64,000 nucleotides of DNA, taken from the NCBI GenBank assembly GCA_965178125.1, contig OZ237737.1, forward strand, positions 496,001-560,000. Reading direction: 5' to 3'. The first letter of the stretch is position 1; each line of letters starts with the position of its first letter. A model generated the notes under the pieces. That model was given only the letters and a program-made list of their open reading frames with translations, had not been told where the DNA came from and made no database searches. The position numbers were made by a program, and so were the translations under genes. Positions 3,756 through 62,658 of the stretch are shown in pieces. The DNA is from Bilabrum cf. latius. Taxonomy: Eukaryota.

Positions 3756-3872
3756 TTAGCTGTATTGACGAAATGATGCGGCTCGTTGTGCGATGTACTG
3801 TTTTGAAGATGAAGATCACCAAACTCGTCGTGCGCTGCCGTATCGCACATACAGCGTCAAAGATCCATTAAC

Positions 3873-10679: not shown

Positions 10680-12653
10680 TTACCCGTTCGCCGCTTCGCC
10701 TGGCGCGGAACTCGAATTCCCAGTTCCAGAATCCCTACTGCCTGCTGCTGCCAACGCACCGCCGGCCCCCGCAGCAGCACCTCCCTGCCCGGGAGCAGCC
10801 CCAGCACCGGCTTCTCCCGAGACTGCGGCAGCGGCGCTTGAAGCCCTCTGATTTCCATCCTACCCCCCTGCTCCGTTCGCATCCTCCCCGGAACCGCCCG
10901 ACCCCAAGCCAGCACCCCCACTGTCTGACTGCTCTGCGCTGCCGTGCGATGCACCCTGCTGCTCCACCCCAACGCCGCCCCCGGAACCTCCGTTGTCGGT
11001 ACCAGGGGCCTGCCTCTCCCCGTCAGCACCCGCCTAATCACCCCCCTGCGCTGCTTCCTGCGCCTGAGCCTGCCCCTGCGCCTGCGCCCGCTCCCGCGCC
11101 CGAGCCTGCCCCTGAGCCTGCGCCCGCAAGTGGTCAGCAAGGCCGCCGCCGCCCGCTTCCTGCGGCCCGAAGGCTGCGTGCACGTCTGCGTCCATGACGC
11201 GGCCCCTTTCCCCGTTCGCCTACGCGGGGTCTCCGCCGCATAGGGAATACACCAGTCCCCCGCAGGCATCGATTCCATTGGATCCGAAGCCATCCGCCCA
11301 CGCAATCCAGAGGTAGGCAAGGGCCAAAGAGGCGCCCACGAGGAGCACTGCGGTTGCGATTCCGAATCCGCCCACTGTGCGCGCGTCCCTCAGCAGCACC
11401 TCCCTGAGCTCTCTGCGGTCGTCGTTGTACGTTCTCCGCTGCGACAAGGTCAGGTCGTCCCAGATGTCCCGCGTCAGTCGGCTGCGACGGGGGTGGGATA
11501 CGGGGGGTGGAATACGGAGGGGGTGGGACACGGGGGGGGAGGGGGCGGTGGGGCGGTGCGATTTCTTCGAGACGCGCGCAAGTACAGGCACAGGAGAGAA
11601 ATAAGGGTGGGGGGCTGCCAACCACCAGCTGATGGAGGCGTGCTGCCCTCAGAGCTTGTGGGTGGGGAGCGGTCCCGAGCCAACAAACTCACTTGACTGC
11701 CGCGCGGGATCGAATCCCATTGAGCGCCCAGGACGCTCCAATCAGCAACATCACGCCGGCCACCAGAGCCAGCAACGCGGACGCAAGAGCAAGCCACGGC
11801 CTGTGCAATCTTGCCCCCAGCAGGACTGCCGGCGCGACGACGAGCGCCACCACGGCCGATGCCGGGAACGCTGCTCTAGACGCCACTGTCGATGCAACTG
11901 ACGTGTCATCCCTGAAGCAATAATCGTTTATTACACACATGACGGGCACACCCGTCAGGATCATCCCAAGCGCAAGCGCTGCCAGGAGAACTGCAGTGCG
12001 CCTGGCGCACACGCCGTAGGAGAAGAGAGCGAGCGTGACGGCGTCGCCCTCTGCCTCCTTGCTCGTCTCCTCTTGCTTTGCCCGGCCGTGTACCAGGCGT
12101 ATGGCGCCTGGTACATTAGGATCTGGCTCTGATCGAACGGCAGGGGCAAGCGGCCCAAGCCCCAGCCTGGCAAGCCGCCGTGAGAGCAGCAAAGAAGGCA
12201 CCCGGTCGAGAGCAGAGGGCGGCGGTAGCGAGCCCTGCAGAATCGTTGCCGTGTTCGGGCCGTCCCATAGCTCTTCCAGAGGTACTGTGCTGAACTCATG
12301 ACCCTGTCCATCTGTTCGTCTGGATGGGCCTACTCTCAATGCTCGTCTCCAAGGCTCCTGCGGACCGCCGGAAGGTTGCAGCTCACCCGGCTAGGCGCTA
12401 TCGTTTTGCTGAATAGACGTGGGCGGTTGCCCTGATCCTACTAGTCCAGATGATGGCGCCTGTGTTGAATCTTGCTACCCCGCTTCCGCCTAGGCAGGTT
12501 GCTACCCTGTACCTGCAAATAATCGGTGCAACGGTCTGAAACAGCTAATCGGAACATTTAGAAGTATGCACCGATTTCAGAGAATCAAAACAGACATGCT
12601 GTCACAACTTAATCACTATTCAACTCACTACCTCCTATCTGAGGGGCTGACAT
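10680..12653 (-). CDS. Four-TM membrane protein with tetraspanin-like topology (no CCG motif); introns 12513-12628 and 11482-11692; about 7 in-frame TAG
   Basis: GTGAGT donors and GCAG acceptors join the exons in phase. Three close TMs, a loop, a fourth TM and a Gly/Ala/Gln-rich tail. Ends TAA at 10680-10682, followed by AT-rich sequence. Confidence 0.65.
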
Positions 12654-21991: not shown

Positions 21992-22239
21992 GTTTGTATC
22001 TTCAGTCTGGAATCTAGCGGTCAGTCAGACCCAAAATCGCACCTTCGCGCGAGTGACAAACGTATGAATACAAGATACAGACCTTGGCTGGCAGATCAAA
22101 GCGATACTGAGCTCGAGTCGCCGTGAATGGCCTTGCGGATGGCTTTCTGTCGTGCCCCGAGGGCGCCGCGCAGTTGAAACGGAACCTTTCAGAACCGGAA
22201 TAAAATTGAGACAGTGTGTGTCCGCATTCTTGCGGGCGC

Positions 22240-23634
22240 ATGGCAAGTGAAAGGTACGTTCGTCTGTCGCTGGAGGGTAACATATCTGCTGGAAAGTCAA
22301 CGTTCCTTGATGTTATTCGAAAACATTTGACGGACCGAGTTTTGGTTGCGTAGGAGCCGATAGAGTCCTGGCAGGTGTGCTCGACCGGAGATGGTGCGGA
22401 CACTTCGGGCCAAGTGGCAGGACCAGACGATGAGACGAATGTTTTGAAGTTATTCTATACAGATCCGTCCAGGTGGGGTTTCACGTTTCAGTCGTTTGCG
22501 TTCCTGAGCAGACTGAAGACGTAGCTAGAGTCTGCCAAGGTTCTCGAGCAAAGAGTGCGCAAGCTTGCGGACACTGAATCCGCAGGCACTCCAGGTTTGT
22601 ATGAAAAAGATCATAAGGAATCATCCAAACGAGTGGCTGCTCAAGATCCGAGAGGGTCTTCTGGAGGAGGTCCGAGAACAGCCGGTTGCTGTGACGGCGG
22701 CCCTGGCGTCAGCGATGGTCCTGCCGCTCCAAGAGCTCTCGTGTATGAGCGCAGCGTCCTTTCGGATAGATTCTGCTTTGCGTAGAATTGCAAAGAGACG
22801 GGACTGTTCAAAAAAGCAGAATGGGCCATCTACCTGCAGTGGTGGACGTGGCTCGTGCGCTCGTTCGATGGACTGCACCTCGACGGTATCGTGTACCTTC
22901 GGAGCTCGCCCGATACATGCCTCCGCCGGCTGAAGCGCCGTAGCCGGGAAGAGGAAAGCACTGTAGGCGCAGAGTATCTGGGCCAGCTCCACGACAGGCA
23001 CGAGAGCTGGCTGCTCCGGGGTTCGATCCCGGGAGAATTCATGCGACCCGTCCTTGTCCTCGACACGACGGCCGAGTTCGAAACCGACGCGGCGAGATCG
23101 GAGCACATTCTGGCACTGGTGGAGCGCTTCATGCAGCGGCTTGCGGCTACCAGGGTTCGCGAACGTTCGCTGAGCATGGACAGGCCCAAGGGCACGGAGG
23201 AGCCCGAGTCCAAATCAGGAAGCTTGGAATATGGAGCCGCGCTGGGCGGTCATAGATCGCCTGTACGAAAAGTCGGGGCTCCGGGTCTCGCCCCAGCATC
23301 GGCGTCGGGTGCGGGTGCGGGTGCGGGTGCGGACCGGAGCAGTACCGGGCACTCCAGCGGTTCATGTGCCACTACTTGTGCGGGTGCAGTGAAGGTGGAA
23401 GGGATTGCTCGCTCCGGTTCGCGCCGGATGGGAGGGGAAGATAGGGAGACATGGCTCACCAGGGTGGTGGGACCTGCAGAAGTTCCGCTATTGCGCGGCG
23501 ACATCGTCGGGGAGGTCCCTGCAGAGAGCACTAGTCTGGGAAGCTTGCTGGACGTGTCCGAGGGCTCTGGTGGGGGCGATAGCGGAGCGGCAGTTTCGGC
23601 GGCAAAGATAGCGGGTGTGACTGAACCTAGCTGA
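22240..23634 (+). CDS. Deoxynucleoside kinase (dCK/dGK/TK2 family); in-frame TAG at 22351, 22522, 22783
   Basis: P-loop LEGNISAGKST, EPIESW, FYTDPSRWGFTFQSFAFLSRLKT[TAG]LE, ERSVLSDRFCFA, DGIVYLRSSPDTCLRRLKRRSREEE, HESWL; ends TGA. Confidence 0.93.
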
Positions 23635-23771
23635 GTACTATGTGCTGTCTTGTATTGTTGAGCCAGTATGCGTCCCTCTGCGACGATGACCGGTGTTCTG
23701 TTTTTTCCGTGGCCCGAACTGCACGCTACCTACAGTATCGAGATCGCCAGAAGTGAAATATTTCTTGCGCC

Positions 23772-26700
23772 ATGCTGGCTGCAATTTCGCTATTGTGCGC
23801 TTGTGCATTGGCTGGAACCATTCATAAGCATCCACACGATGCACTGCGTGCGGCCGGAGTTGATTCAAAAGACTTCAAACTATTCCGACCGCGCAAGCAC
23901 GGAGACAGCATCGACAAGGCCGAGCACGATCACGACCGAATCGTGGCGGCCAAGAAGATGCACGAGCGAGCTCGTAGAATGAGGTTGGGTACTGAGTCGC
24001 CAGAGGACGACAGCGTCATGAAGCGGAAGGACAATCGCACCATTGCTCCGCCGGTGGACCGGCACGCCCTGTCACCGCCGGTCGTTGCGTCGCTGTACGA
24101 TGGCATCCACCGATCTGGTGCCAGGCGCACCATCAAAAAGCACTACACGTGAGATCGTTAAAGGCTTAAGGATTCGCTGGACTGTGGCTTCTGGTCTGTA
24201 TGCTATATGTCGGTTTCCGCCTCTCCACTTGTTGCGCAGGTGTCACGCGGTGCACCCTCGCGCGGTACTTGATCCGTTTTTCCAGGGAAATCCCGAAGGC
24301 CATCCCGGTTCTTCCGACGGAGCGGCGGGCTCGCGCACGTGCGCTGCTGCTGGGACCCTCCCGGCCTCTGAAGGGGCTGCGCCTCTCGCGGATGGCGCCG
24401 AAGCGAGCGTTGGCGCCATCCGGTCAGCTTTCCTGTTTTCGGCGCAGCGTCCCGGCGCTGGCCTGCCGATGCATCCCTTGCACAACGCCGACGTGCTGAC
24501 GATCACGCTGCCGCCCTCGGTCCACGACCACGAGCAGGGCTACGACGGCAGGGAGGAGGCGGGGGAGGAGAGGGTCGATGACGAGGGCAGGCTGACGACG
24601 CCGGACGCGGCGGACGATTTCCACCTAGCGGGATGGTTCCACGACGACCGACAGGACACGGAGGTGAGCCACCACGCCGGGGGGCTCATGCTGCCCGGCG
24701 ACGCGCAGATGGTCACCGGTGGGCACGGCAGCGTGAGAGAGCTCAGGGCACAGCGGGCAGACCCTGATACGTCAGGGAACAACGGGCACCGCGCGGACGA
24801 CGACGCTCACTTCGGCGCGAGAGGGCTCATGCTGGCCATCGCTGTGCCCGACCCCCCGGAGTCCATGTACTCTCCCCACGTGGCCGAGCTGGAGGCCAAG
24901 GAAGCCCCGCATCGGATCAAGAGGAGGGCGAGAGAGCTCATCGAGGAGAAGGAGATGTTCCCGGAGGATGCCTGGAGGCAGGCGAGGGCTGAAGAAGAGG
25001 CGCATCTCAGGCGGGTGGCACCAGCGGCCCACGGCATGACGAGGCTGAGGGTCAAGCACGGCCACAGCGGGCGCGGAGCTGGGGGCGCGTAGGGGCGTGA
25101 GCTGCCTGTGGACAGGCGCTTCCTCGTACCAAAGGCTACGGAGGAGGAACTTTCTGCCCGCCGGCATTCTCCCATGTTCGATGAAGCCGAGTTCAAGCGA
25201 CTCATTGCCGCGGGTTTGCCCACCGGGTCAGCTGAGAAGGTGAGGGAAGAGGAGCACCACGTCAGCCACCTCACCGAGGAGGTCCCTGAACTGGACGAGG
25301 CCACGCGGCGCCAAATGCGGGACCAAATGCGGGAGCTCACGGGCGAGGGCGACGAGGACGAGGAGCCAGAAGCGTTCGCAGGGGATGACATGGCCGAGCT
25401 CTGGGAGGAGGGGCTGGAGGGTGGCGGTGCTGGCGCGCCCGTCCTGCAGCAGCTGCGGTACAGGGATGTGCCGGTGATTCCCGCGCTGAGCAGGCACGGG
25501 CATCGCCACGGGAACCACTCCATCGAGTCGCACGTGAACGACCTCCATAGCCCCCGTTTCATCGCGGGCGTGCGCGGTCACCATGGCGGCGGCCACGCTT
25601 CGATGGACCACGCACCAGTGGAGGGCGAGCAGTACAACCCGCTGGGCAGGGGCAAGGTCGCAGGCTCGTTCCATTCCCACAACGCAGGTCTTCAGGGGCA
25701 GCCGCATCCCCACATCGACACGGCGCATGTGCCCGAGCACGGTGCCCACCACCACGTCGGGCAGTCCAAGCGCTTTGCATCGGCGCTCGGCGTGCGGCCG
25801 CACCATGAGGACCCCCAGGAGTACGTCGACGATGAGGAGTGGCACGTGGAGGTGGCCAAGCGGTCGGATGGACCCCTCACCACTGCCGGCTCCGCCTTCC
25901 TGCACCTGTACGCCGGGTCGCTCGGCAGGGTGACCGGGCCGCTCGCCACCCGCCTCCCGACGTACCTCGTTGTGGTCGAGGTGGAGCCTCATTCGTCCCT
26001 TCGGCTGCCTATACCCACGGCTTTCGACGACGTGATGCTGGTGGTCATTGGCGGCTCGGGCCGCGTGGGTGGTGGCGATCCGCACAAGATGGACGAAGCC
26101 GACGCGCTTGAGCGACACGAGATGGATCACCACGTCGACGGGCCCAGCTTCACGCGCGAAATGCGGGAGCGCAAGCGCAAGGCGCAGCAGGCCAGCAAGA
26201 GCAGCCGCACGCAGCACAGGCCTCGCGACCCGGACGTGCACGGTGACAGTCCCAGGGAGGACGGCGATGAGCACCCCCACGCGGCCGGAGAACATGTTCA
26301 CGACATGCACGAGGCACATTTTCACGCAAAGAGGGAGGAGCTCAAGAACAAGAAGCACCATGCCTCTCATCTGGGAAGCGTGGCGGTGCATGACGGAGAT
26401 GTGGTCGTGCTGGACCCGTCCGATCGGAGAGACATCGCAGACAGGGACAGGGTGAGGCTGCACCACCCCGGCCGCAACGACTCGTGGCCCCCACACGCGC
26501 CCCCGCTGCGGCATTGGGACACGACCCACTTCCACAACGTGGACGATCTTTGGCTGGTGACTGGAGGCAGGCGCCTCGTGGTCGCGGTGGCGGCCGTGGA
26601 ACCGACCCAGATGGCTGACGCGTCGCCCCTGGACGACGAAGCGCGCCGCTGGAAGGCTCTCGTGGCCCCTGCACCCTACGCCGGCGTCAGCACCGAGGCA

Positions 26701-27249
26701 GCTCTCCGCATGTACAGGCAGGGCCTGCTCATGCCCACCACGATCGATGAGGCCGTGCGCCGCCGCGAGATGGACCTAGAGCTGGAGGAGAGGCTTGCGG
26801 ACGAGGTGGGCTAGGGCAAGGACACCCACAGGGTGATGGAGCAGAGGGCCAAGGACGACGAGCAGGAAGCTGATGCGCTCGGCATCTCCTTCCATGAGCC
26901 CCTCTCCGCCCTGCCGCACCATTCCCACCTGCGGCACCGCTACCTGGTTCGCACCGTGGCCAGCGGGGCCGACCACGACCACGCACATCTGGCTTCGACT
27001 GGGGAGCACGGTGCTCACGCCCACCTGGACTCGCTGCATCGCCACGACCTCCATGAGCACGCAGAGGGCGACCCCCACCATCCAGCTAACGAGTACTTCG
27101 ACCCGTTTACGGGAGAGCTGGACGAGTCCCACCCCGACCTCGTTGGCAACCCTGCGCTCGCCAGGCGTCTCAGGAGCATGCCCACGCCCCCGCCTCATCC
27201 GGACTACGAGAGGCACGCCCCGCCTCCAATGGATCACGAGGAGCTCTAA
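23772..27249 (+). CDS. Secretory-pathway His-rich degenerate pirin/cupin-like protein with C-terminal HEEL; intron 24149-24239; in-frame TAG at 25090 and 26812
   Basis: Signal peptide MLAAISLLCACALAG; pirin-like blocks GLPMHPLHNADVLTITL, PGDAQMVTGGHGSVRE, YAGSLGRVTGPLATRLPTYLVVVEVEPHSSLRLPIP; ends ...MDHEEL-TAA. Confidence 0.7.
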
Positions 27250-27563
27250 GTGGCCGAGCGCCCATTGATGTGCGCATTCGGCCATGCAGCACCCGTCCTG
27301 CTGCATGGCGTTTCGTGGATGTCGTGCACCTACACCACGGATCGACTGGCAGCCTACCTCGAAAGAGGGAAAGGCGCCGTTGGGATTTTGCTTGCATGTG
27401 ACTGTGACTGTATAGATGGCATACTAGTAGCCTTACTGTATCCTTGGATCAATTCATTGGCAGCATGCCTGGCAACCGCAGCAACCCTACCTTCGGTCGC
27501 GAAAGAAGAACACATCAGCCTTCACTTGCACGTTTCCGCCAGCATCCAAAGGACTGGGAGCAT

Positions 27564-30500
27564 TTAGGTCCAATGGCCCTTCTCCAGCCCTCGCAGCGAT
27601 GCCTCAACCGCATCACAATCGATTGACCAAGCTATACTCATCGGCTTGCTTCCGCTCGATGCATCCGAGCCTTCAATTGACTTTGTGGAGGGATCCACCG
27701 GCAGGGAGATGCACCCTGCAATCAACCGCAGACAAGTTGCCAACTACTTGTCAGCAGCAGACGTGCCCAGCGTCGCAGGATACTTGCTGCCACGCATACC
27801 AGCCGGGGCATCTGAGACATCGCTCCGACGAAGCGTACCTGCTGCAGAGTTGGCGAGCCTGCTCGCCGCAGTCAGCGCCTTAAGCATTGAGCTCGGGAAT
27901 GCATCATGCGCAGCTCTTCCGGCGCCCGCTGCATTGGCCGCAGCAACCAGTGCGGTGCATGCCGCAGCCACCGAACTCAGCACAGCCTCAACAGACTGTC
28001 CAGCCGTGCTCAAAGCACCGAGCGCAGATGGTGAGCCAGCAGTCGCAGTCCCGAAGCCATCAGCCATGGCTTGGCCCGCCTTCAACGCAGTCGCAAAGCA
28101 CGCTACCATTCCAGCAAGCTGTGACCGGGCACAAGATGCGAGAGCAGGTTGGGCAGCAGCCACGGGTGCAGCGGTAGTGCATGCTTTGGCGCATTCTGCA
28201 ATTGATAGAAGCAGGACGGCAAGCTATCTGCTGCGGAACGACTGGGCGTCGCGCTTTGCAGAGCCGTTGTCGGCCGTCGTAGCCGGTGACTGCAGCACCT
28301 AGGTTGCGCTGATGGAAGCAGATGCCGCGCGACAAGCAGTTGCAGCAAAGGCACGTGCTGCCTGCGCTGCGACGATACCAGCGGTACGCTCCGTGGTCAC
28401 CTGCTGCAGCGCCAATGCGGTGCTTCGTGGCTTTTGCTTGGTCAACGTGACAGCAGCTTGAAGCAGCACAGAGACCCACCCACCTCCGAGCATGCCTTGC
28501 TAAAACCGAGCCGCGATCGCCTGGCTTTGATCCGACCACGCTGTGCCACAAGCGCCATAGACAGCCTCTGCAGCTGCCAGTGCTCGCGACGCTTGCGTAG
28601 CCCCGCTCTCCGCAAGTGCAATGACGGACGCCACCTGGTTTACTGTCTCCATAGTCATGCTGTCCACCCCACTCCCGTCTTTTCCACCTGTGGCTGCGCT
28701 GAGTCGCAGCCTGGCAAGACCCCGTGCAATGAGCGCACCGATGGCAACTTGCATGGCTCCTTGCTCCCGCCGAGCATCTTGTGCAGCGGCACGAGCTGCA
28801 CGCACCCTGGGCTCTAGCTCGCCTGCGCGGAACTTGCTACTCGACGCACCGCCCATTCGCTGCCCCCTATGCTCCTTGGATTTGGAGGACAGGGAGGCAG
28901 CTCGAGCCTCCATGCGCTACGCCGTTTCAGCGGCCAGCGCAGCTCCAGCTTCGAGCAGCTGCTTAGCCCCCGGATCCAGCAGCTCAGCGGAGGGGCCAGC
29001 GGAAGCAGGCTCGATCCCTCCGTTCGCAAGCTCGATCGAGGTACGCCGGAGCAGCGCTACGACGTTGCATCGCAGCCGGCCAACATTCACTTCGTCTCCG
29101 CCAACCTCAAAGTGCCGGCTGCCTTGCATGTAGCCTGCAACGGCTGCTGCTACTGCGGACCACCGCAGACGATGCGCGCTGTCGGTCGCTGTTGCTTCGG
29201 AAGCCGCTGCCAAGGGAAGTCTCGAACCAAGTGAGCTTCCATTTGTTTTGCCGGCCATACTCACAGCCATCTGCAAAAGAGCAACATTAAGGGACACGAG
29301 ACCCCTTTCTGCTTGCAGCAAGTGCGCGAGCAGTGATGCCCACTCGTTCATCGAGTCTCCAAGGCGACGCCTAGCGCTCTGCTCGGCCCGCCCTGCCTAC
29401 CCTTCGTAACCGTCCGCGATCTAGCTACCTCGTAGATCGCGAATACTGGCGCTATAGGCAGAGGCAGCTGCAGCCAGAGAAACTAGACCTGCGATGCTGC
29501 GTATCCCGTCCCATTTACGCTCCCCGGCGGCTCCCGCGCGTCTCATCTGCTCATCCACTTGTACGTACGACGGGACAGCAATCCATAAATCGCCCTACAG
29601 CGCAGAGAGGATCTACTAGGCAACTGGAATCGATGGCTTCGTGGACTGCAGATCGGCCCTGTACCTCTTGTCCGCCGAGGCTGATGTGCTCCGCCCGATG
29701 CTCTCAAAACTAGACGACTCAGGCCCGAGATCCGCATCCTCTTCAGTTCCGGCACCGTGCCGCAGAAGTGACAACACAAGATCTAGTCGATCCAACCGCA
29801 CAAGTTGCTGCTCTTGAGTGCCCTGCAGAGCAGGGAGGGAGGATCGAACGGCAGTGAATGCGTCCCCAATGGCGAGCCAGAGGGGGACACGTTCGTTCGG
29901 TTGCAGGCAATCCACTGCTCTAGTGGCATCCGTGATGGATTCAGATGCTTCGTCTTCGCGCAAACCAGCGGCTGCCTGTTTCCGATACCGCACTGCTACC
30001 CGCAAGGCGTCCTCCATGGCTCTGAGTGCCATCCTCGGCCTGTCTTCCTGCAGCAGAGACCCGGCCAGACCGGCACTGCATCGGATCAGCAGTCCAGACA
30101 GGCGTCGGAGAGCAATGGCGTGTATCTCTATCGTATCTGCCAAGTCTACTGCAGGTGCCGGGGACCCCTCCTCCTCGTGCACTTTAGCACCACCCTCTGC
30201 CTAGCTGGAAGGACTCCCCTCATCCTCCTCCATGCCTGGTTCACCCGAGCGCACTGCAGCCTTCTCGTGTGCATGGGTGACGAGGGCGGCCCGACACTCC
30301 AGCGCCAGCAGAACGTGTCTTGCAGCGCTGTTGAAAATGTCCGTTGCTTGCCCTATGACTTTGCCTGGGTCTGCCTCGTCTCCGCTTGACTCCTCGTCGG
30401 GCGAGCCCTGGCTAGACCCCGCCACCACCATTGCCATCGCACCAGGCGCCGAGTCATTCTATCCATCGATGCCAGCCAAAGGCTAGGGCAATTCGCTGTC

Positions 30501-33500
30501 TTGAACGGAAAGCAGTGCATCGGCAGCGTCTGTCGTGGTTGGTGCGGCTGACAAGCTCTAAGAGCGCAAGCGCCGCCCTGCCCTTCGCCTAGCCTGCGAC
30601 GCCGCCACAGAGCCACCTATCATCCCACCGCCCAGCGGTCCAATTGAAGCCCTGGATCGAATACCGCGCGCCACTGGTTTTATGCTCATCCCACTAGCTG
30701 CAAGCTGCTTGGATTTTTTGTGCCGTCTGTGGCCCTGAAGCAGCAGCTCTTCGGCAACCAGCTCGTGTACGTGAGCGCGTAAAGGCAGATGAGCCTTTGC
30801 CCACGATGGCAGTTCGCCAGTAGTGCGCCTGCGCGGTCCAGACTTATCTGAGGCGGCACTGGCGCTATCTTTGTCATGCGCATGCAGCGCCGCCCCATCC
30901 CTGGCCACATCACCAAGCAGCTCCACGCACTTAAGCAACAGCCTGCACCGCCTACGCTGCTGCCTTCGCTGCTTCTGAGCTGCCTCGCGCTAATTTCGTT
31001 CCCTAGCCCGCCTACCCCTTGCCCCCTTCTTGCCATACGCACCAAGCGGCGCTTGCGGCGCGTTCTACGTGTCGGTCACCGTGCTGCGGCCAATTTCCTG
31101 CGCCACACGGTAGCACAGCATAGCCATCATGTACCGCCACCTGCGACGGCGAGCAATGCCTTGTAGGTCAATCCCAGAGCCGCTCCCTCCATGCTCCTGT
31201 GCCCTCAAGTCGCTACCATCTGTATCCTACGTTGAAGCACCTGCTTGGGTGCCGGCGCTGACGCTTGAGTCGCCAGTGGTTGTCTTGGCCTGTTCCGAGG
31301 CAGGATGAACGCGTGTGCCAGCAGATGGACCAGCCTGGGGCCCTCCTGTCTTTCTCGTATCAGAGGCTTCACTGCCTGTGTAGACTGACTTTGCTCCAGT
31401 AGAATCTACGCTGCTGTCTTGCTGCTTGGCTTGCGTGTTCATATCGTAGAGCTCAACAAGCGACTGACCGGCCCTCTTCACCAACCAGTACGATGAGCAG
31501 TCCTTGGTGCAGTTGTGGCGCAGGAATTGCAGCAGCGCAGCACCACCCTGCTCTACAGCACTCGCAGAGAATGGCGCGTCATCACCGGACAACAAAGGAA
31601 TTTCTGAAGTGCTTACCAGCTAGTATCCTTGGATCCTCCCGCCGTCGTGGTAGCAGACCACGAGCTCAGGCACGTCAGTGAAGAGGTTATCCAGATACAG
31701 GTCCAGGCACTCCTCCTGGCTGAGACCCTTCCCAATCTCTGCCAGGGTCACAGCCACGGGATTTGGATGAGCTTGGTTGCGAAACACGAGCAGGTCGCTG
31801 CCTAGGACTAGCTTCAGCCCCGCAAACTGCCAGTGTGCCATGAACCTGTATCCGCTCGACGTAGGGTCTGCCGGCTGCACGTCGGCATGGGAGGATGAAG
31901 ACGAGCGGCGGTTCCTTGCGCGACCGGTTGCCACGGCACCTGAGCCGGTGGTATTAGCGCCTGCCTGCATCATCTTTCCAGACGCGGCAACCGGTGTGAC
32001 TGTAGCTGTAGTCGCAATGTGGGTTGAGCGAGCCTGGCTCTAGGCGCTCGTTCCTAACTGAGACTTAGTTTCTCTCCCGTACGGCGCTATAACACCAGAC
32101 TGGACCTATACATGCGCGGCGCTACGGCTTGCTGCTCTACCCCCGCTGCGTCTCTTCGCGTCGCTACTGTGAGCAACGGCAACGATACCCTCAGCCTGTT
32201 CTTCTTCCTCCTCTTCAACTTCTTCTTCGTCTACCCCCTCCAATTTGTCAAGACTTTGGGCTGTGCCATGCAGTCGCGCACCCGCATGGTCAAACTCGTC
32301 TCCTCCCACCACGTAGGCCGGGGAGACCATCTCCACCTTGCCATCCTTGATCATAACCCAGCGCAGGTCGTCAGAGGCTTCCGGCGTATCCGATTTGACT
32401 GCACCGCCCGACTGCACCGACGATGACGTCGCAACGATATGATCATTGGCAGTAGATCCTGGAGCATAGTCTTGCTTGGTCAAGCGCCCAGTCCTGGCTC
32501 GCGCTCGCCGGTTCTCTCTCGCCTTCTAGGACACCAGCAGGGGGGCAGGCTGTTCGTGCTGTAGCTCGGGCGACGGAGCAATCATGCTGAATGCTGGGGC
32601 GTTTCGAGAGCCCGGGCTTGCTGCTCCGCTTGCACCGCTCCCAGAAGAGCCCGCGCTTTGCGATCGGCCGGGCGGCAAGCTGAGCAGAGCCGTGCGGTCG
32701 GCTCCCCTGAGCACCTGCTGCATGTCTGGAGGGTCCAGCTGCAGCACTCTCGATGCCAGGCCTGCGCTATCAGAATGCACCTCCCTATCTGAGTAAAGGG
32801 ATGGATCCTGGGCGGCCGCGTGATCGGGCTCGGCCAACTGGCCCGGTCTTTTGGATTCTGCCAAGGCAGATTTCGGTCTATCGGCAATGAGATGAGGCTG
32901 GTCGCCTGGCGATTCAAGCATCGGTAGCTGGCTGATCGCTCCCCCTGAGGACATGTTCACGAAGGCAGAGTACAAGGTGCGACTGGACTGGCTGAGAGTG
33001 GCCCTCGTGCGCGCATCACGCCTGCCAGCATCAGAATTGGGCATGATCCGCGGGTCGCTGCGACGCCTCTATTCAAGTCCGCCGGCTGAGTCGATGGCTA
33101 GCGGTGCCTCAGGCTGTGGATCGGCTTGCACCGGCTTGCTTCCCCTGCGCTACTCTTCTTGTATGCTTCCAGAGGAAACCACCATGCCGGCATCGCCTGC
33201 TTGGACCGCTGGTAGCACGGCGATGCCGGTGCCAGCAACTTGCGCTGGCGAGCCACGCTTGCCGCGTGGCTCCGCTCTGTCTGTGCCTGGCTCGGCATCG
33301 AAAGTGCTGCTTGCTGAGGAGCTTTCGATTGGAATGCTCGGATCACCATCCAGGACGATGGTGCGACCAACTCGGTGCACTGCCATCGATACCGGCCTGT
33401 CAGACACTGGCATTGCGAAGAGGCTTCGGAGGGCTGACGCGGGGGCAACCACATCAGCGCTGCCTACGTGCGCTACTAGCTGATCAGAACGCTCCATTGG

Positions 33501-34001
33501 GCCAGAGAGGCGCTGGCGAATTGATTTAGCTTGCTTTGCAATGACAAGCTCAGCTCCAGCCCCACTTAAATCTGGCCTGTACCCGACTTGCTCCGCTTCC
33601 AACGCTGACAGAACTGCCTTCGCAGCACCCCAAGGAACCACAGCTTCCTCCCTCAGGGTTTCTTGTTGGAACTATAAGCCTACACCACCACTCTCTGACA
33701 GCAATCCGCCCATTGCAAGCAGCCCTCTTTGCGTTCCGAACATGTCGGGATCCAGACCAATCTTGCTGCTGTCCACAGCAGGACTTGTGACCAGCCTCGT
33801 CGGCTCAGCAGAGGGCGCACCTTTCGATATTGTCGCGACCTCAAGCTATGTTTGGGCCGGCAAATGATGATATTGTAGAGCGGGAGCAGCCTGTATTTGG
33901 ACCTGCTGGAATAAGTCCGGATCGATTCCATCTTGCGTCCCCACCAGAGAGGCTAGGTCCAGCCTAGCCGATGGTGTATGCTCTTCATTTAATAAATTCA
34001 T
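27564..34001 (-). CDS. EDRF1: EDRF1 (erythroid differentiation-related factor 1)-like protein, ~2145 aa, apparently intronless, about 25 in-frame TAG
   Basis: DVVAPASALRSLFAMPVSDRPVSMAVHRVGRTIVLD; LVLGSDLLVF; YLDNLFTDVPELVVCYHDGGRIQGY; LQFLRHNCTKDCSSYWLVK. About eleven listed ORF pieces lie in one frame; I translated the larger gaps and found no TAA or TGA. Ends TAA. Confidence 0.85.
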
Positions 34002-34165
34002 GATGCCTGAAGCCCAACTAGCAAAGTTAACGTCATGGAGTCCGGGTGGATGTGATGCTTGTGCATTATATCTGATTTTGCCGCCGGCGTGCTAGTTGCG
34101 AGCACATTTCCACGTGTCCGCCAAAGGCAACTTCAAGCCTGGGCCCACATTTACAGTATCCTGAT

Positions 34166-35611
34166 ATGCCCAAGTAGCGTGGAAACAGAAAGAAAAAGAC
34201 AGGGAAACCCGATTCAGAGGCTGGCGATGCCAGCAATCCGGGAAACGCGCCTGAGTAGGTAGATGAGAAGAAGCTAAAAATGCAAGCGGAGCAGGAGGCT
34301 GCGTAGAAGCGCGTGAAGCTGCTGCTGGAGAACTATGGGAGCATGAAGAAGGCTGATAGTGATCGGGAGGCATTTTTGCTGAAAGTTGTAGAGTCTATCC
34401 GTTCTCATTCTACGGGGTTCGGCCCGGCCCTCGCTCTCGGCGAGCGAACGAAGTACTTTGGGCCAGAGCACATTTATGGCGCGATCATGTCGTCTGGGCT
34501 CGTGGATCCGAACTGGTCTGGCGAGGGAAAGGGAGAGTTGAGCCGGGAGGACGTCGCAGATTCTATTTTCATCGAGTTGCTGCGGACCATAAACTCGAAG
34601 CTGTCACCGAGAGATTTTGGCCCGCAGCGACCCAAGCAGCTAGGCGCGCGCCCATTCCTGTAGCGATTGGAGATCGCCAAGCGAGTGAAGACCGGCGCAG
34701 ATGGTCAGCCGGTCCTTAGCAAGAAAACAGGGAAACCGAAAAAGGAGGTGGTGCACGCCCCGGGCAACCTGGTCGTGCTGCAGCCGCCGCAGGACGGGTC
34801 TGACGTGTTCAAGGTCGATGATCTAGCGCGCTTTATCATCAACTACGAAGAAGATGCGTTTTGGCAGACGCTTAAGCTCGGCGCGATGGCTGTGGCTGTA
34901 TTCATTCTGCTGCTATATAGGGTGTGGCCGATGTGGATGAGGACGGGCATTTGGTACGTGTCTGTCACGTTCCTAATCGTGTTTTTCGGTTTCGTGGTCC
35001 TAAGGCACTCCCTATTCGTGGTTCTATGGGTGTTTGGCGTGGAGCTCTGGCTAATTCCTGGATTCTGGGAAGATATTTACTGGCCTCTTTACAGCCTCGA
35101 GTTCGCGCCTGGCAGGGACGTGGTGCTGAGGCTGATCATGGCGGTTGCGCTCGTGTTTGGTGGATATATGGCGTACAACTCCGACATCACGTTCGACCAC
35201 GTGCTCGAGTCGCAGCAGGAGATGGTGAGTTCTCTGTACGAAGGAAAGTTCCTCACGCAGGGAGCAGCCGAGGACCCGTTCGCTCGCACCATTCCCAGCA
35301 TCGCTGACCTCGAGAAGCAGCTGGAGGAGGAGGAGAAAGAGGAGGATGGGGGCGAAGAGGCGGCCGGCAGCGCATCGGGTGCTGCAGGGGAGTCTCCCGA
35401 TGCTGAAGGCGAGTGGGGAGGGGAGCAGGAAGGAGTGAGCCAGCCTGGGTCTGGTGGCACCAACACTGCTGACGTGGGTCCCGGCGGTGATGTGGATACC
35501 TCTCAGACTGGCGGCGACAATGACGATGACGAGGACGCTGCTCTGATGGAGGAGATGCGGAGGGTGGCCGAGGAAGAGGCAAGCGGGGAGGAGCAGCGGT
35601 ACGAGGACTGA
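34166..35611 (+). CDS. SEC62: Translocation protein Sec62; in-frame TAG at 34175, 34256, 34304, 34661
   Basis: Basic N-terminus; INYEE followed by TMs LLLYRVWPMWMRTGIWYVS...VLRHSLFVVLW...LWLIPGFWED..PLYS; acidic tail; ends TGA TGA. Confidence 0.85.
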
Positions 35612-36477
35612 TGAGGCAGCTCGTCACTGGGATTCTTTCGGTGGCTTTAGATTCAGCAGGTAGCGGGCCTCAATGGTCAAACTAAGTTCTCCGCTGGCAG
35701 GCTTGGCTGTACCTATCGCTGCGCGCGAGCTGGATGGAGCCCGCTTGGTTGATCTGAATTTACCATTCCATGCGGGACTACGCCCCATCACTCACTCCTT
35801 ATTGGATCTTTGCAGCGGAATACCAGAATGCCAGCGGGACAATACTGCAGCGGGGTAGCTGGCTGGGGGGGCTCTAATAGTTCGTGCTGTCATGCCTACG
35901 GATTTTGAAAAGATAGACCTCACTGGTGTCCTTCCACTCAGACCATGGCGGGGGTAGATCTAGCTGGCTGATGCCGCGGGTTGCGTGCAGTCTCAATTCG
36001 CCTGAATGGTCGTCCGCTATCCAAACCTAAGACGTAAAGTCGAAAATGGATCGTGTCATTGGCTAGTAACAGTGGCGTGCGGACGAAGAGGAAGGCCTGG
36101 TGATCGAAGTGAACCTTTTGCACGATGCCCCTTTCGAACGTCCTCAAGGGAATGCCATGCGGCGCCGTACAAGTAGCGCTTCATCATCATTTGCCACAAG
36201 ATGTTCGCACACGCTGTACTAAGAATGGGCCTACCACAATGATCTGTTGGGCAAAGAAACCGGTGGGGTAGCCAGGAATACCAGAATACCAGAATAATTT
36301 GTAGGGTAAAGAAATCAGGGGTAGCAGGCAAATGTAGCGTTCACATACAATTTTAATCACACTCAATCCTGCGGCGTACCTACGCATGCAATCGAAAGTC
36401 ACGCATACTCTGGCGACTCTCAGCACAAATTGGAAATAGCTCAGGAATCTATTTGAAGCTTGAGCCTTTGATCCAGA

Positions 36478-39400
36478 ATGGAAGGCTCGTCTGCTGGATG
36501 GAATGCCGTCGAAGAGGGCAGCCTCAAGATCGAAGTCAATATCGCGTACGATGCCCTTTTGAAGAAAGTCCTAAAGGGAATGCCAGAAGGCGCCACCAAA
36601 GTTCTTTTAGATCAACTGATTCCACAAGATGCCAGCGAGAGGACCAAGTTTCTGAATGATCCATGCATACGGTGGATCCAGCCGGACGACAATAATGGGA
36701 CGACAGGAGTGCGCACGATTTCGATGAATATCTTGCAATTCGCGGTAATGTGCGAAGCAAGTGTGCTCGATTGCACGCTTGCACAATGTCTGGTTTTTGC
36801 AGGGGCCGGAGTACTCGTCCCAACCTCGGTGAGTGCGTGGAAGCAGCTTTGTATCTCGATTGCGGACAATAGCCACACTATGCCATGTGCAGGTGGGACC
36901 ACCTAGCAGCCTACATTGATGCTTGCACTTTTACTGCAGGACGGACGCACAGCATTCGAGATGATGCTGACTATTCAGGGACGTTTGCACAAGCGGAGAA
37001 AGAACGAATTTCATGCTTTCTAGTATGCTGCACAGGCAGCTGCCGCCGAGGCTCGCGCTTCACCAGATGCCCAAGCACGGCTGGATCGGTCGCTGTCTCT
37101 GTCCTTGCGCAGGGCACTGGCAGTGCGCTCTACCGAGCACCTTGACATCATCTGCCGCAGCGAGGCTGCCTGCGTGGACCAGTCGTGGATCGACCCCGAT
37201 ACGGGTCGCTCGCTCGTTCACACTGCCATCGCCGCCGGATGCTGCCGCCTGGCCGTGCTGGACGAGCTCGCAATGGCGGGCTGCGACCCTCATGCTCCAG
37301 ACAAGGATGGCGACACGCCCATGCAGCTGGCCCTGAAGGCCGGCAGTGCCACGATGGTGCGCGGGCTGCTGGCGTGGGGCTGCGAGCTGCGGGCATCGAT
37401 GGCCGGGCTGGTGCCTGCGGGCGAGTCGCATGATGCGTTGCGGTCGTTCGTGTCCGATGTGGGCGATGGTGTGGGAGCGGGGGAAGTGGTGTGCGTGGAC
37501 AGCAGTGTGGCAGAGTTTGGCCGCGTGGCCGATGTGCGTCTTCCTTGGGTGGGTGGGAGTGTGGCTGGTGGTCTGGCATCTGACAGCGAAGCCCGTCTGG
37601 GCTTGATCCGGTAGCTGGTCCTGCAGCTTGGGCCAGAGCTGTGCGGGGAAGCCGCCTTGGAGGCATACATTGCCCATCGCCATACTTATGGGGGGGCCGT
37701 GCTGGCTGATCCAGGGTACGCTGGCGAGGAGGCGCTGGCCCATGCCCGCAGCGCGATCACCTCTCAGGAGGACAAGGGCCTGTCGTATACGGACGTGGTG
37801 GTCGCGTTTGAGAGCATGTGGCGTGGCATGGATTGCATCGTGGCGAGTCCGCCGACGTGTGCATCGCTCGGAGTCTCACCGGCGTAGCTGGTACCGGCGA
37901 TGGCTGACGCGTTGAAGAAGTACGGAAGCACAGAAAGTGAGGCCGAGGAAGCCGGTGACGGGCCAGACGAGGCAATGGGTAGTGGCGACGTGCAGGCCGT
38001 GCTGGTGGGCCAGATCAAGGAGATGTTTGAGTCACCCCCGTATGGCACGAAGAAGGAAGACATGCTGTAGAAGCTGCTGGACCCTGACGGCGGCAAGATG
38101 GTGAAGGAGGGCGACGACAGTTTTTCCCACGATTCTGCATACGAATGGGTGTCCAGCACGGCAGCATGGATCGCCCTCATTGCAAGTACGCGCACGCCGA
38201 TGAAGCGAGACACCAAGGCGGCCGACGGTGAGGAGCATATGGAGGCAGCTGCAGCTTCCAGGGCGGCCTCGGGCGCTGGGGCTGCTGGTGGTACTGATGT
38301 GGATGCATCCGCATCTGCATTGAGCGAGCTGGTGTTCAGTAACGCCCTACGATTGAACAAGCCGGGGAATGTGAGAATCACAGAAGATGCACGTTTTGTC
38401 TGTATTACGACACCGTGTGGCTATGTGTTCGTTGTCCAGGTTGCGTTCGTTTCCCAACAATCTCGCAGGCTGGTCGCGTGCTGCCCTTGGGCTATGCTCT
38501 GAAAAGCAGGGGCGATGACTCGTATGTATCCTTGGGCCTTCTGTCCGCTCTCGGTTGCTGCACTTCTGCTACCTTGCTTCCTGGCTATCGAAGCGTCTTG
38601 CCGACTATTGAAGCAGTTTACAGAGACGTTGGAAGTGGTATGCTGTCGCCTACCTGTGCTTCATTCTGCCATTCAGTTGACACAGGAATGGAGGTTGTGA
38701 TGTCTTTGGATGAGTGCAAGGGTCTGTTGTCGAATTGGTTCTTCATGGAGGGCCAATTGGAAGAGTCAATGCCGCTGGTTCGTTTTGCAGTTGCCGCTGC
38801 AGCGATTGTACGAGCCTACAAGACAGACGATCACATCGCAAAGGACATCGGTTAGAGGGTAGCTGCTGCAGCTGCCCGCTTGTTTGAGCGTAGTAAGGTG
38901 CCATTGGCCTTTCGCGTTGCATATGCCCGAGGCCTTGCTGTCTTCGCCGCTTCTATCGACCTGCGAGTTCAATTTCTTGTATCGGAAGACGGCGACTCTG
39001 TCCTGTGGTAGGCACATGGGCTGGACGAAGGAGCTGACGGCAGGTCTGGATCCCTTGCAGTGGAGAAGGAAGGCTTACACGCGCTGCCTGAGGTGGTGCA
39101 AACGCTGTGCGGCAAGACACACAAGTCATACGGCTCGCTACTTCGTAATCCGGATGCAGCGGGGCTCGCAAGCGTCCGAGACAACCCCAGTGGCTTCAGC
39201 ACCTTGCTAGACACGGATGCTGTCATGGAGAAGGTCGCTGATGGGCTGTGGTCCGCGGTCTCAAGTGAAGACAGCAGACTGCGGGGGCTGTGCCACGTGG
39301 ACTGTCTTGACATGACAGTGGAAAACACCGAGGACATGGCGGCAGCACTGACCTGGTGCAGCAAGCACGAGTCCTCTGGCCTGTTGGTGCAGAGCGTCGA

Positions 39401-45400: not shown

Positions 45401-46736
45401 GGCCGCTGAGGAGGAGCAGCAAGAGGCAGCCAGGCGCAAGGCCGCTGAGGAGGAGCAGCAAGAGGCAGCCAGGCGCAAGGCCGCTGAGGAGCAGCAGCAA
45501 GAGGCAGCCAGGCGCAAGGCCGCTGAGGAGGAGCAGCAAGAGGCAGCCAGGCGCAAGGCCGCTGAGGAGCAGCAGCAAGAGGCAGCCAGGCGCAAGGCCG
45601 CTGAGGAGCAGCAGCAAGAGGCAGCCAGGCGCAAGGCCGCTGAGGAGGAGCAGCAAGAGGCAGCCAGGCGCAAGGCCGCTGAGGAGGAGCAGCAAGAGGC
45701 AGCCAGGCGCAAGGCCGCTGAGGAGGAGCAGCAAGAGGCAGCCAGGCGCAAGGCCGCTGAGGAGGAGCAGCAAGAGGCAGCCAGGCGCAAGGCTGCTGAG
45801 GAGGAGCAGCAAGAGGCAGCCAGGCGCAAGGCTGCTGAGGAGGAGCAGCAAGAGGCAGCCAGGCGCAAGGCCGCTGAGGAGCAGCAGCAAGAGGCAGCCA
45901 GGCGCAAGGCCGCTGAGGAAGAGCAGCAAGAGGCAGCCAGGCGCAAGGCCGCTGAGGAGGAGCAGCAAGAGGCAGCCAGGCGCAAGGCCGCTGAGGAGGA
46001 GCAGCAAGAGGCAGCCAGGCGCAAGGCTGCTGAGGAGGAGCAGCAAGAGGCAGCCAGGCGCAAGGCCGCTGAGGAGCAGCAGCAAGAGGCAGCCAGGCGC
46101 AAGGCCGCTGAGGAGGAGCAGCAAGAGGCAGCCAGGCGCAAGGCCGCTGAGGAGGAGCAGCAAGAGGCAGCCAGGCGCAAGGCCGCTGAGGAGCAGCAGC
46201 AAGAGGCAGCCAGGCGCAAGGCCGCTGAGGAGGAGCAGCAAGAGGCAGCCAGGCGCAAGGCCGCTGAGGAGCAGCAGCAAGAGGCAGCCAGGCGCAAGGC
46301 CGCTGAGGAGCAGCAGCAAGAGGCAGCCAGGCGCAAGGCCGCTGAGGAGGAGCAGCAAGAGGCAGCCAGGCGCAAGGCCGCTGAGGAGGAGCAGCAAGAG
46401 GCAGCCAGGCGCAAGGCCGCTGAGGAGGAGCAGCAAGAGGCAGCCAGGCGCAAGGCCGCTGAGGAAGAGCAGCAAGAGGCAGCCAGGCGCAAGGCCGCTG
46501 AGGAGGAGCAGCAAGAGGCAGCCAGGCGCAAGGCCGCTGAGGAGGAGGAAGATGGCGATGACGTCCTAGGCTCTGGGGCTGCAGCCGCAGCGTTAGACGC
46601 CTAGAGGATGCGATCCACCAAGGACAGTTCCAAGAGCCGTCCGCGACGCCGTGCGCCAGCCGCACATGGTCGGGACTGGTCTCAGTCGTCCAATGGTGGG
46701 GGGAGCAGCCCTGGTGGATTCTGTACTATCTCGTGA
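36478..46736 (+). CDS. Giant ankyrin-repeat protein, copy A (~3190 aa): two internal modules, long charged helical repeat, C-terminal CaaX (CTIS); introns 36829-36939, 38371-38468, 39651-39762, 41245-41392, 42635-42762, 44014-44108
   Basis: Ankyrin motifs GRSLVHTAIAAG, DKDGDTPMQLALKAG, GETPLHAAVRAGRVQAVAELLRRGA. Six phase-0 GT-AG introns join all pieces in frame once about 18 TAGs are read through. Ends GGFCTIS-TGA. Confidence 0.78.
45231..46550 (+). repeat. 39-bp coding minisatellite, ~34 copies (EAARRKAAEEEQQ)
   Basis: gaggcagccaggcgcaaggccgctgaggaggagcagcaa in tandem; one unit is 36 bp. Confidence 0.95.
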
Positions 46737-60921: not shown

Positions 60922-62658
60922 TCACAGCGACAGCACCGCCATGGACGTCGTGACGGATCCAACACCGTCTTCTTCGTCGCTTGAGGGCAGGTCCTCGCCG
61001 ACCCCATCCTTCACCTCGATCCCAGCCTGCCTTTTCCTCTCTCGCTCTGCCGCCGCTCGTTTCCTCAGCTCGGCTTTCCTTTCTTTGTTGCTTAGACCCT
61101 CCAGGCTGGCATCCCCCCCAGCCTCCATCGCTTTTCTCTTCTTCCTGGCCGCCTTCATCAAACGCTTCGCCTCCTTGCGCCTACGCTTCTCTTCCTTCTT
61201 CTGCTAGGCAAGCGCAGCCGCAGATACCAAAGAGGCTGCCTTGCCAGACCCAGCAGCTGCATCCCCATCAGCAGCAGCAGCAGCAGCAGCAGCATCATCA
61301 CCAGGGCTTGAGATGGACCCACACGCCGCACCTGCCCGCGCTGTTCCGGTGGAGCTGCCAGCGCCAACAGGCGGCGGACACCCACCGGAAGGCAACATCG
61401 GGGGAACATTTCCCGACGTTGCAACCGCGTCTTCCTCCAGGGCTCCACCGAGGCCCAGGCCGCCCTCTCCCCAGCCGTCCGTGAGCAACGAGCCGCCGCC
61501 TGCACCGCTTGCACCCGCAGAGGCTGGGACTGTCTCGAATTCGCCTGCCCCCGCTTTGGAAAGTGCAGGCTTCGCTGCTGCAGCACCACCCACCGCTGCT
61601 GCTTCGCCATCGCCAGCCCCGTGGACTCCTTCCATGTCCCCCCAGGCTTCTCGCTTGCTCTCCTGCTGCGCGATCAGGATCTCCAGAGCGGCGTCAACGT
61701 CACCCTCCACGGATGCCAGCGTTGATCTGACGTCCCCCAGCGTCATTCCAACGGTGCTGCGGAGCAGAAGCTCCTCCTCACTCGTCACACCTCCATTGGC
61801 GCCGCCCATCGCTGCCCCCTTGTCCCTGCCCCAGTCCGCCCCGGCACCTCCCCCCATGTCCAGTCGGTCCCCTGCACCAGCACCAGCACCAGCACCAGCA
61901 CCAGCACCAGCACCAGCACCAGCACCAGCACCAGCACCAGCACCAGCAATGAGCCTCTTTGCCTCCGGCGCGCCTTCCCAAACCGCGCCTTTAGCCGTCA
62001 TGACGAATGGAGTGGCGGGGGCTTTCGCGTCGTCCCCTAGCATCCTGATGGAATCGTAGTGCTCTCCGTTGCGATACACGAGGTTGATCGTCTTCTTGTA
62101 ACCCGGCGACTTGAACTCCCACCGGGGCTGGTCCAGCTGGTGCACCACGATGTTCATCTTGAGGTGATCATGAATTGCCATGATTTCTAGCTGCCCCACC
62201 CATTCGCCTTGCTTGGCGATGTTGGCCGTGTACTCCTCAAAAGTACCGTCCTCCTCCTCGCTTATGAAAAACTGGTACCCATCCTTGTTTGCCTGCAGGC
62301 GCGCCACGCAAGCAGCACGAAGCTCGACGTGATGGGCTTCAGTCCCATGCAACTAGTCTGACACGGCTCGAAACATGCAATTCCCATCTGCAGCAACTTC
62401 TCGCACTTGCAAGTTGGCCTTCCGAAGCTCTACAGCCAGCTTTCTGCTATCCGCTGCCCACTTCGCCTTGTCCTACCTAGCCCTTTCTCGCTGCATTCTG
62501 CGCCTATCTCTCTTCTCCTGTTTCTTTTCTTGGGCACGCTTCTGGTGCTGCAATCGACGTTCCTCCTTGCGGGTCTTTGCCTTGCCTGCACCCGATCCGC
62601 CTGCCGCAGACTTAGCACTTGTCCCCTTTCCTGTCTTCTTTCCCTTCTTCTTCGGCAT
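60922..62658 (-). CDS. OTU-domain deubiquitinase (OTUD3-like) with UBA/CUE-like domain; in-frame TAG at 62473, 62353, 61204
   Basis: VREVAADGNCMFRAVSD[TAG]LHG, GEWVGQLEIMA, NLVYRNGEHYDSIR; UBA-like VRSTLASVEGDVDAALEILIA; basic termini; ends TGA. Confidence 0.92.
61874..61948. repeat. (GCACCA)n hexanucleotide repeat encoding (Gly-Ala)n in the OTU gene
   Basis: About 12 tandem copies seen directly. Confidence 0.9.

Follow-up and report, generated by a model that had tools for sequence, protein, structure and literature searches.

The codons UAA and UAG (together UAR) nearly always carry the same meaning, and the cases in which they differ, known from about half a dozen lineages, serve to ask what ties the two codons together, namely tRNA wobble and recognition by the release factor eRF1 (PMC11687900, PMC5304391). 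Nuclear codes in which UAG alone is reassigned include those of the rhizarian exLh (Leu), Iotanema spirale (Gln), Scotinosphaera (Ser), Protocruzia tuzeti (Gln) and several phyllopharyngean ciliates (Gln or Leu) (PMC5304391, PMC11687900). In I. spirale, a member of Fornicata, UAG encodes Gln, and UAA and UGA are stops (Panek et al. 2017, PMC5304391); in the phyllopharyngean ciliates and P. tuzeti UAG is read as Gln or Leu and UAA terminates translation (McGowan et al. 2024, PMC11687900). In this work we analyzed a 64-kb stretch of eukaryotic DNA, a part of which is given above and which is called here the window, for which an initial annotation had proposed that TAG is a sense codon and that TAA is still a stop. 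The proposal was built on three genes: one whose protein ends in HEEL just before a TAA at position 27247 (the HEEL gene), an EDRF1-like gene, and a gene for a membrane protein with four transmembrane segments (the 4-TM gene). From our analyses we conclude, with a probability of roughly 0.85, that this host uses TAG as a sense codon and TAA to terminate translation; we hold with the same confidence that the genetic code of the host departs from the standard one by a single change, UAG being read as an amino acid, with UGA as the main stop and UAA as a minor one.

The window has a guanine-cytosine (GC) content of about 60%, and its genes are eukaryotic, with few and short introns; it most plausibly belongs to the nuclear genome of a GC-rich, intron-poor protist. 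A scan of the window against Rfam matched no family. The most conserved protein of the window is a mitochondrial-type glycerol-3-phosphate dehydrogenase (G3PDH, 4130-6070), whose gene has no TAG; its best match is in Cafeteria roenbergensis (60% identity), followed by oomycetes (51-54%) and other stramenopiles. Because of these matches the host is treated here as a probable stramenopile, with the bicosoecids nearest among the sequences compared, an assignment drawn from this single protein. Four sequencing runs were compared with the window: X1, which is DNA, and X5, X6 and X7, which we call RNA and whose contigs we read as transcript assemblies because they skip GT..AG introns that are retained in X1 and because each contig corresponds to about one gene.

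Codons were tallied over 18 coding sequences (15,292 codons), and RNA-supported splicing was applied wherever it was at hand; the set includes genes supported by the Pfam families EDRF1_N, dNK, OTU, Sec62, AATF, M16 peptidase, MIF4G, polysaccharide deacetylase and DAO. In frame, these sequences carry 84 TAG, distributed over 16 of the 18, and neither TAA nor TGA. With the three standard stops the longest frame of the window does not exceed 868 codons; when only TAA and TGA are used as stops, four frames are longer than 1000 codons and the longest reaches 2307, and no comparable lengthening is obtained if TAA is dropped as a stop in place of TAG. In-frame TAG is also found inside the OTU, dNK and EDRF1_N Pfam domains. 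The terminal codons of 15 genes of the window were 12 TGA, 3 TAA and no TAG (Table 1), and no in-frame TGA was found, so that TGA, not TAA, is the main stop, in keeping with a GC-rich genome, and termination at TAA in the window therefore rests on three genes. The count omits the candidate stops of open reading frames (ORFs) in a giant ankyrin-repeat gene array described below: the TGA at 38502, 39863 and 41334 were rejected as stops since they lie within RNA-supported introns, and the TAA of the ORFs 52176-53684 and 53512-54879 were likewise rejected, as they probably lie in the equivalent introns of a second repeat unit. In-frame UAG in many genes, conserved domains included, together with UAA and UGA that occur only as stops, is the pattern of a UAG-only reassignment, and it is the pattern observed here.

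The TAA at 27247 stands, as had been annotated, directly after the HEEL codons, and it closes a protein of 1128 residues, rich in His, Asp and Glu, whose C-terminus reads PPPMDHEEL. HEEL fits the PROSITE pattern [KRHQSA]-[DENQ]-E-L for proteins of the endoplasmic reticulum (ER), for which a human ER protein ending in HEEL is listed (PMC2140024), and HEEL C-termini are known on ER-located proteins of human and Magnaporthe (PMC2140024, PMC5430845). Among the proteins of the window the pattern matches 5 of 15,238 tetrapeptides, and it is C-terminal in one of 16 complete C-termini, that of the HEEL protein. The signal peptide that had been claimed for this protein was recovered in part: a hydrophobic N-terminus, MLAAISLLCACALAG/TIHK, is present, and it appears only once an intron of 91 nucleotides (nt) is removed. 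With small residues at -3 and -1, and a Kyte-Doolittle mean of +2.5 over residues 2-14 that drops to -0.7 over residues 16-40, this N-terminus looks like a short, cleavable-looking signal peptide. The RNA contigs start at 23774, 23779 and 23812, and the start ATG sits 2 nt 5' of the longest one, so that its membership in the mRNA is not proven by the contigs. The HEEL protein thus resembles proteins with a KDEL/HDEL ER-retrieval signal in carrying HEEL at the extreme C-terminus and a hydrophobic N-terminus, and ER localisation is predicted from the sequence; it differs in that its ortholog, described next, ends in GDEL, with a G at -4 that is outside the PROSITE set, and in that the protein matches no Pfam family. 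Over about 100 residues, its conserved domain (25849-26100, + strand) is 31-32% identical to P0125, an unnamed protein of 161 residues, but the match is weak (E 5e-4); P0125 may resemble the C-terminal domain of pirin-type cupins. An AlphaFold2 model of this domain built from three sequences had a mean predicted local distance difference test (pLDDT) value of 39, too poor for structure searching.

Exon 2 of the HEEL gene was the query of an exhaustive HMMER search, which found only five proteins, four of them fragments with 59-75% identity. A metagenome scan, in which the query was an alignment of the window HEEL protein with one of the proteins found (P0121), returned a single contig, L001, of 4488 bp. 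The alignment of its frame 15-3062 with the window protein spans 996 columns, at 74.4% identity. The ortholog (1,015 codons) has no in-frame TAA and four in-frame TAG, none of them at the positions of the window TAGs and each flanked on both sides by conserved sequence. Its C-terminus reads SHGDEL and is followed by TGA, which in a global alignment pairs with the TAA at 27247; the DNA identity between the two sequences is about 75% until the last 15 codons or so, and past the stop it is about 50%, with many gaps. We regard this as the strongest single piece of evidence, as the same -EL protein end is closed by TGA in L001 and by TAA in the window. The proteins P0121, P0122 and P0123 end exactly at TAGs of L001 and were therefore cut there by a standard-code gene caller. 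A second species, represented by this metagenome contig and with about 74% protein identity, thus shares the reading of TAG, and the change is therefore older than the split of the two lineages. Elsewhere, L001 is not syntenic with the window, where EDRF1 lies downstream of the HEEL gene. At 3860-4486 of the - strand there is a frame of 208 codons with two in-frame TAG that ends in TAA; it has no Pfam match and was not counted as a gene end, and a Pfam scan of two ORFs in 3863-4487 matched no family.

At the 3' side of the HEEL gene the transcript contigs end at 27420 (X5), 27427 (X6) and 27406 (X7), that is, 157-178 nt past the TAA; they come from three runs of two studies and are colinear with the genome beyond the TAA, and the DNA contig continues. 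Translation through this TAA as far as 27567, which had been named as the observation that would speak against termination here, was not seen, given that the contigs end at 27406-27427 and that the TGA of the ortholog is aligned with the TAA. Contig ends are in general a weak hint of RNA ends; since three assemblies agree, those of the HEEL gene are given moderate weight. The contig of the EDRF1-like gene, on the opposite strand, begins at 27426, where the summed depth changes from 117 to 27. In X5 the convergent transcripts of the HEEL gene (+) and the EDRF1-like gene (-) thus end at 27420 and 27426, about 6 nt apart, and the two 3' untranslated regions (UTRs) therefore nearly touch and do not overlap.

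The explanation that best competes with a plain UAG-only code is a context-dependent one, as in Condylostoma, karyorelict ciliates or Blastocrithidia, in which TAG, and perhaps TAA, would be sense internally and a stop near the 3' end of the mRNA. Codes of this kind are known (PMC5304391, PMC11687900), and a set of 15 gene ends leaves room for some genes that stop at a late TAG. However, TAG is required as a terminator at none of these 15 ends, a small number of genes, and it is found as sense close to gene ends: the last TAG of L001 lies 61 codons before the stop, with well-conserved coding sequence after it, and in the window HEEL gene a TAG lies 145 codons before the stop. Moreover, TAA is never sense in the tally, so that at most TAG would have two meanings. 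We consider a context-dependent code unlikely.

Still less likely is a code of the ciliate type, in which both UAR codons would be Gln, TAA would be rare by GC pressure, the three TAA described as stops would be sense codons, and TGA would be the real stop. TAA is indeed scarce throughout the window (367 on both strands together), 12 of 15 genes are closed by TGA, and in the EDRF1-like gene a TGA that lies 13 codons past the TAA is still within the transcript contig. This scarcity falls well short of accounting for its absence from coding frames. The A-ending synonyms make up 24.3% of CAR codons (CAA), 24.4% of GAR codons (GAA) and 20.5% of AAR codons (AAA); if TAA and TAG were synonymous and TAA had the share that CAA has, 0.243, about 27 TAA would be expected beside 84 TAG, and none was observed. 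By arithmetic on the codon tally, finding TAG at every one of the 84 TAR codons would then have a probability of about 0.757^84, roughly 7e-11. In addition, 87 off-frame TAA occur on the sense strand in 30,584 positions, which gives an expectation of 43.5 in frame, again with none observed. In-frame TAA, the search for which had been set as a means of refuting the initial proposal, was absent from both the 15,292 codons of the window and the 1,015 of the ortholog. This absence is not circular, because frames delimited by TGA alone are also free of internal TAA: in the 18 ORFs so bounded there is none from the start ATG to the gene end, and the only TAA either precede the start codons of four ORFs or close the HEEL and EDRF1-like genes. 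If the TAA at 27247 were sense, the next TGA would be reached 404 codons on, in the antisense of the EDRF1 coding region, and the contigs end after 59 codons; in L001, TGA stands exactly at the position of the window TAA. The TAA of the 4-TM gene is followed by two further in-frame TAA within an AT-rich spacer. The two UAR codons are hence uncoupled, with TAG as sense and TAA as stop in the same genes, and the distinction from the UAR=Gln code that had been drawn for this DNA is supported.

The other two genes closed by TAA agree with the initial description. In the EDRF1-like gene (Pfam EDRF1_N, 2e-30), the TAA follows a frame of 2307 codons if counted between stops, 2269 if the earliest ATG (34373) is taken as the start, and 2145 with the earliest ATG that the RNA contig includes (34001); of the three standard stops, only TAG occurs within this frame. 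The TAA of the 4-TM gene is followed by a spacer of 101 nt with 41% GC, beyond which the ATG of the next gene lies at 10578. A codon-usage score was trained for each gene on the remaining genes and calculated for the last 100 codons before the stop and the 50 codons after it. It was positive before and negative after the stop at all 15 gene ends, the three TAA ends included; for the 4-TM gene it changed from +0.26 to -0.40, and after the TAA it was -0.11 in the EDRF1-like gene and -0.01 in the HEEL gene. Homolog searches for the EDRF1-like protein, with its whole length, with its N-terminal domain, and in the PDB with the EDRF1 domain, found nothing. Within this gene, ahead of positions 32212 and 33188, contigs from X5 and X7 carry sequence without a match, which could be due to alternative transcripts, chimeric contigs or a paralogue.

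That the in-frame TAGs are artefacts, by assembly errors, pseudogenes or RNA editing to CAG, is scarcely credible: the TAGs of one ankyrin paralogue (54914-56464) stand opposite K, L, Q and W in the sister copy and can be read as decay, yet 84 TAG in 16 of 18 coding sequences coexist with no in-frame TGA or TAA, across 22000-36304 the DNA run and the three RNA-like runs, which come from three studies, match the window in every letter, and the independent contig L001 behaves alike. The spliced contigs of X5 have no differing letters over 23812-27420 and over 27426-34044, the latter spanning the EDRF1-like gene, so that the UAGs are kept in the RNA and not edited away.

Several observations weigh against the conclusion that TAG is sense and TAA a terminator. 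The assignment of X5, X6 and X7 as RNA is a guess, and transcript ends taken from contigs share the weakness already mentioned. The window offers three TAA ends in 64 kb, of which only that of the HEEL gene is independently pinned, and the codon-usage score after this very stop is weak on its own. In the EDRF1-like gene, the position of the downstream TGA within the transcript makes a read-through tail of 13 residues possible. Finally, any of the 12 TGA-ended genes that has an earlier TAG might in principle stop there.

The amino acid encoded by TAG is most likely Gln, as in NCBI table 15. In the OTU and dNK domains, TAGs stand at sites where related human proteins have Q (Table 1). For three domains, Pfam scores were obtained with each of the 20 residues in turn put in place of TAG. 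Q was the best choice for dNK (164.7, as against 164.5 for H and 164.0 for E) and for OTU (73.4, with N next at 72.1), and the sums over the three domains were 329.8 for Q, 329.4 for E, 327.4 for N, 325.2 for S, 322.7 for Y, 318.8 for L and 317.2 for W. The four TAGs of L001 pair with CAG, GAG, CAG and GCT in the window, and of the window HEEL TAGs one falls opposite a gap in L001 and the other opposite CGC. TAG, if it is Gln, contributes 84 of 731 Gln codons. Against Gln stand the EDRF1_N domain, for which E scored best (93.9) and Q was fourth (91.7), the other two TAGs of the dNK domain, which align with P/T and with S/K, and the pairings with GAG, GCT and CGC in the comparison with L001. 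Judged from these alignments and scores, Glu is a rather improbable alternative, and any other residue is more doubtful still. Alignments of the M16 peptidase, Sec62 and AATF genes with PDB entries had no TAG within the aligned stretches. The ankyrin paralogues were rejected as a guide to the residue: they are uninformative because they evolve fast, and the codons opposite their TAGs, for K, L, Q and W, are any one-step neighbour.

An anticodon UUA would read both UAA and UAG by wobble, and an anticodon CUA reads UAG and not UAA; since CUA pairs with UAG alone, a UAG-only change is the easy direction. In this host, UAG would be read by a tRNA with anticodon CUA that cannot pair with UAA, and that probably arose from a duplicated tRNA-Gln(CUG) by one change in the anticodon. 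Such a tRNA, together with an eRF1 that has ceased to read UAG, is what is usually inferred for codes of this kind, as it was for Iotanema and exLh (PMC5304391). ARAGORN found no tRNA in the 64-kb window or in contig L001, and the window has no gene for eRF1. The single eukaryotic release factor eRF1 must cease to compete at UAG and still read UAA and UGA (PMC5304391, PMC11687900); recognition of UAG by the eRF1 of the host would accordingly have been lost or weakened, and that of UAA and UGA kept. The eRF1 of exLh has its conserved elements without obvious change (PMC5304391), and an altered eRF1 is therefore not strictly diagnostic.

Table 1. Coordinates of the genes, codons and terminators discussed in the text (positions in the window).
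Feature	Position	Strand	Remarks
HEEL gene, exon 1	23772..24148	+	starts MLAAISLLCACALAG, signal-peptide-like; in-frame TGA 6 codons upstream of the ATG
HEEL gene, intron	24149..24239	+	91 nt, GTGAG...GCAG; joint 24148>24240 in contigs of X5, X6 and X7, not in DNA run X1
HEEL gene, exon 2	24240..27246	+	in-frame TAG at 25090 and 26812
H-E-E-L codons (KDEL-type C-terminal tetrapeptide)	27235..27246	+	CAC GAG GAG CTC, then TAA
HEEL gene, TAA terminator	27247..27249	+	pairs with the TGA stop of the ortholog; RNA contigs without a splice joint nearby
HEEL mRNA, 3' UTR	27250..27427	+	59 in-frame codons, no stop up to the contig end
EDRF1-like gene, TAA terminator	27564..27566	-	LEKGHWT, then TAA; next in-frame stop TGA at 27522-27524, 13 codons on
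EDRF1-like ORF	27567..34373	-	26 in-frame TAG, no TAA or TGA
4-TM gene, TAA terminator (last exon of a membrane-protein gene)	10680..10682	-	GEAANG, then TAA; in-frame TAA also at +4 and +10 codons
In-frame TAG in the OTU domain	62353..62355	-	Q in human OTUD3 (closest solved homolog); T in OTUD1
In-frame TAG in dNK (deoxynucleoside kinase)	22522..22524	+	conserved stretch; Q in human dCK and dGK
Genes ended by TGA (12)			AATF, G3PDH, 1430-residue protein, 1233-residue protein, MIF4G, dNK, Sec62, two ankyrin 'C' modules (...GGFCTIS), coiled-coil protein, deacetylase, OTU
Genes ended by TAA (3)			HEEL gene, EDRF1-like gene, 4-TM gene

The ankyrin array extends over 36478-56467 (+ strand) and consists of repeated A-B-C modules. 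In RNA contigs, 36478-36828, 36940-38370, 38469-39650, 39763-41244 and the sequence from 41393 on are spliced together, which gives a single open frame of 1915 codons or more, and the four introns thus removed, of 98-148 nt, are all of the form GTGAG...GCAG. A tandem duplication is evident, as 36472-41334 recurs at 47308-52260 with a period of about 10.8 kb. The two 'C' modules (44103-46736 and 54914-56467, + strand) end in GGFCTIS followed by TGA, a C-terminus that resembles a CaaX prenylation box; in the first, a unit of 13 residues of the type AARRKAAEEEQQE is repeated in tandem about 30 times, and in the second only a few times. When the shorter paralogue (54914-56464) is compared with 44103-46733, four of its five TAGs fall opposite codons for K, L, Q and W, each one base change away from TAG. 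These TAGs are either new Gln substitutions tolerated in a fast-evolving copy or signs that the copy is decaying.

A full-text literature search found no report of a nuclear UAG reassignment in a stramenopile or bicosoecid, in a corpus that leaves subscription journals mostly uncovered; as the runs that contain this DNA date from 2025, a report outside that corpus is possible. None of the genetic-code terms looked for occurs in a preprint of 2026 that describes a bicosoecid genome or in a transcriptome paper of 2016. We lean slightly towards regarding this code as the first non-standard nuclear code in stramenopiles, and as an independent change of UAG to Gln in a GC-rich clade of at least two species (about 74% protein identity) with UGA as the main stop. 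If so, it would offer a second, non-ciliate system in which to study how eRF1 drops UAG and keeps UAA, and a further independent case in a distant group would be a different data point, coming from a GC-rich genome with TGA as the main terminator. There are also practical consequences. Standard-code gene callers cut the proteins of this lineage at every TAG, and public collections hold the resulting fragments (P0121-P0123); with proteins of the lineage stored as fragments (P0121-P0124), homology searches undercount them. The annotation of genomes and metagenome bins of the group needs TAG as a sense codon and TAA and TGA as stops.

Compared with the described codes, the closest is that of I. 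spirale, in which UAG alone is also reassigned, there as here with Gln as its probable meaning, UAA still terminates translation, and a tRNA-Gln(CUA) derived from the CUG form together with a change in eRF1 has been inferred. The two differ in that they belong to different supergroups, and in that the window has about 60% GC and TGA as its main stop (12 of 15), whereas Iotanema and exLh are UAA-dominant (PMC5304391); furthermore, the evidence for Iotanema comes from a transcriptome, and here from one 64-kb window and one related contig. The phyllopharyngean ciliates and Protocruzia share with the host the uncoupling of UAG from UAA and the widespread use of UAG as sense; in the former, 86.9-98.3% of genes end in UAA (PMC11687900), as against 3 of 15 here, and the host is not a ciliate. 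The codes of exLh (UAG = Leu) and of the green alga Scotinosphaera (UAG = Ser) are likewise nuclear and UAG-only, with UAA and UGA as stops, but in the Pfam sums Leu lies 11 and Ser 4.6 bits below Gln, and neither residue is found at the conserved OTU and dNK sites. With NCBI table 6, the ciliate, hexamitid and ulvophyte code in which UAA and UAG are both Gln, the host would have in common the reading of UAG as Gln; in contrast, TAA accounts here for none of the 84 in-frame TAR codons and ends three genes. The code of this host is the same kind of code as the known UAG-only cases, and it is in lineage and in stop usage that it differs from them.

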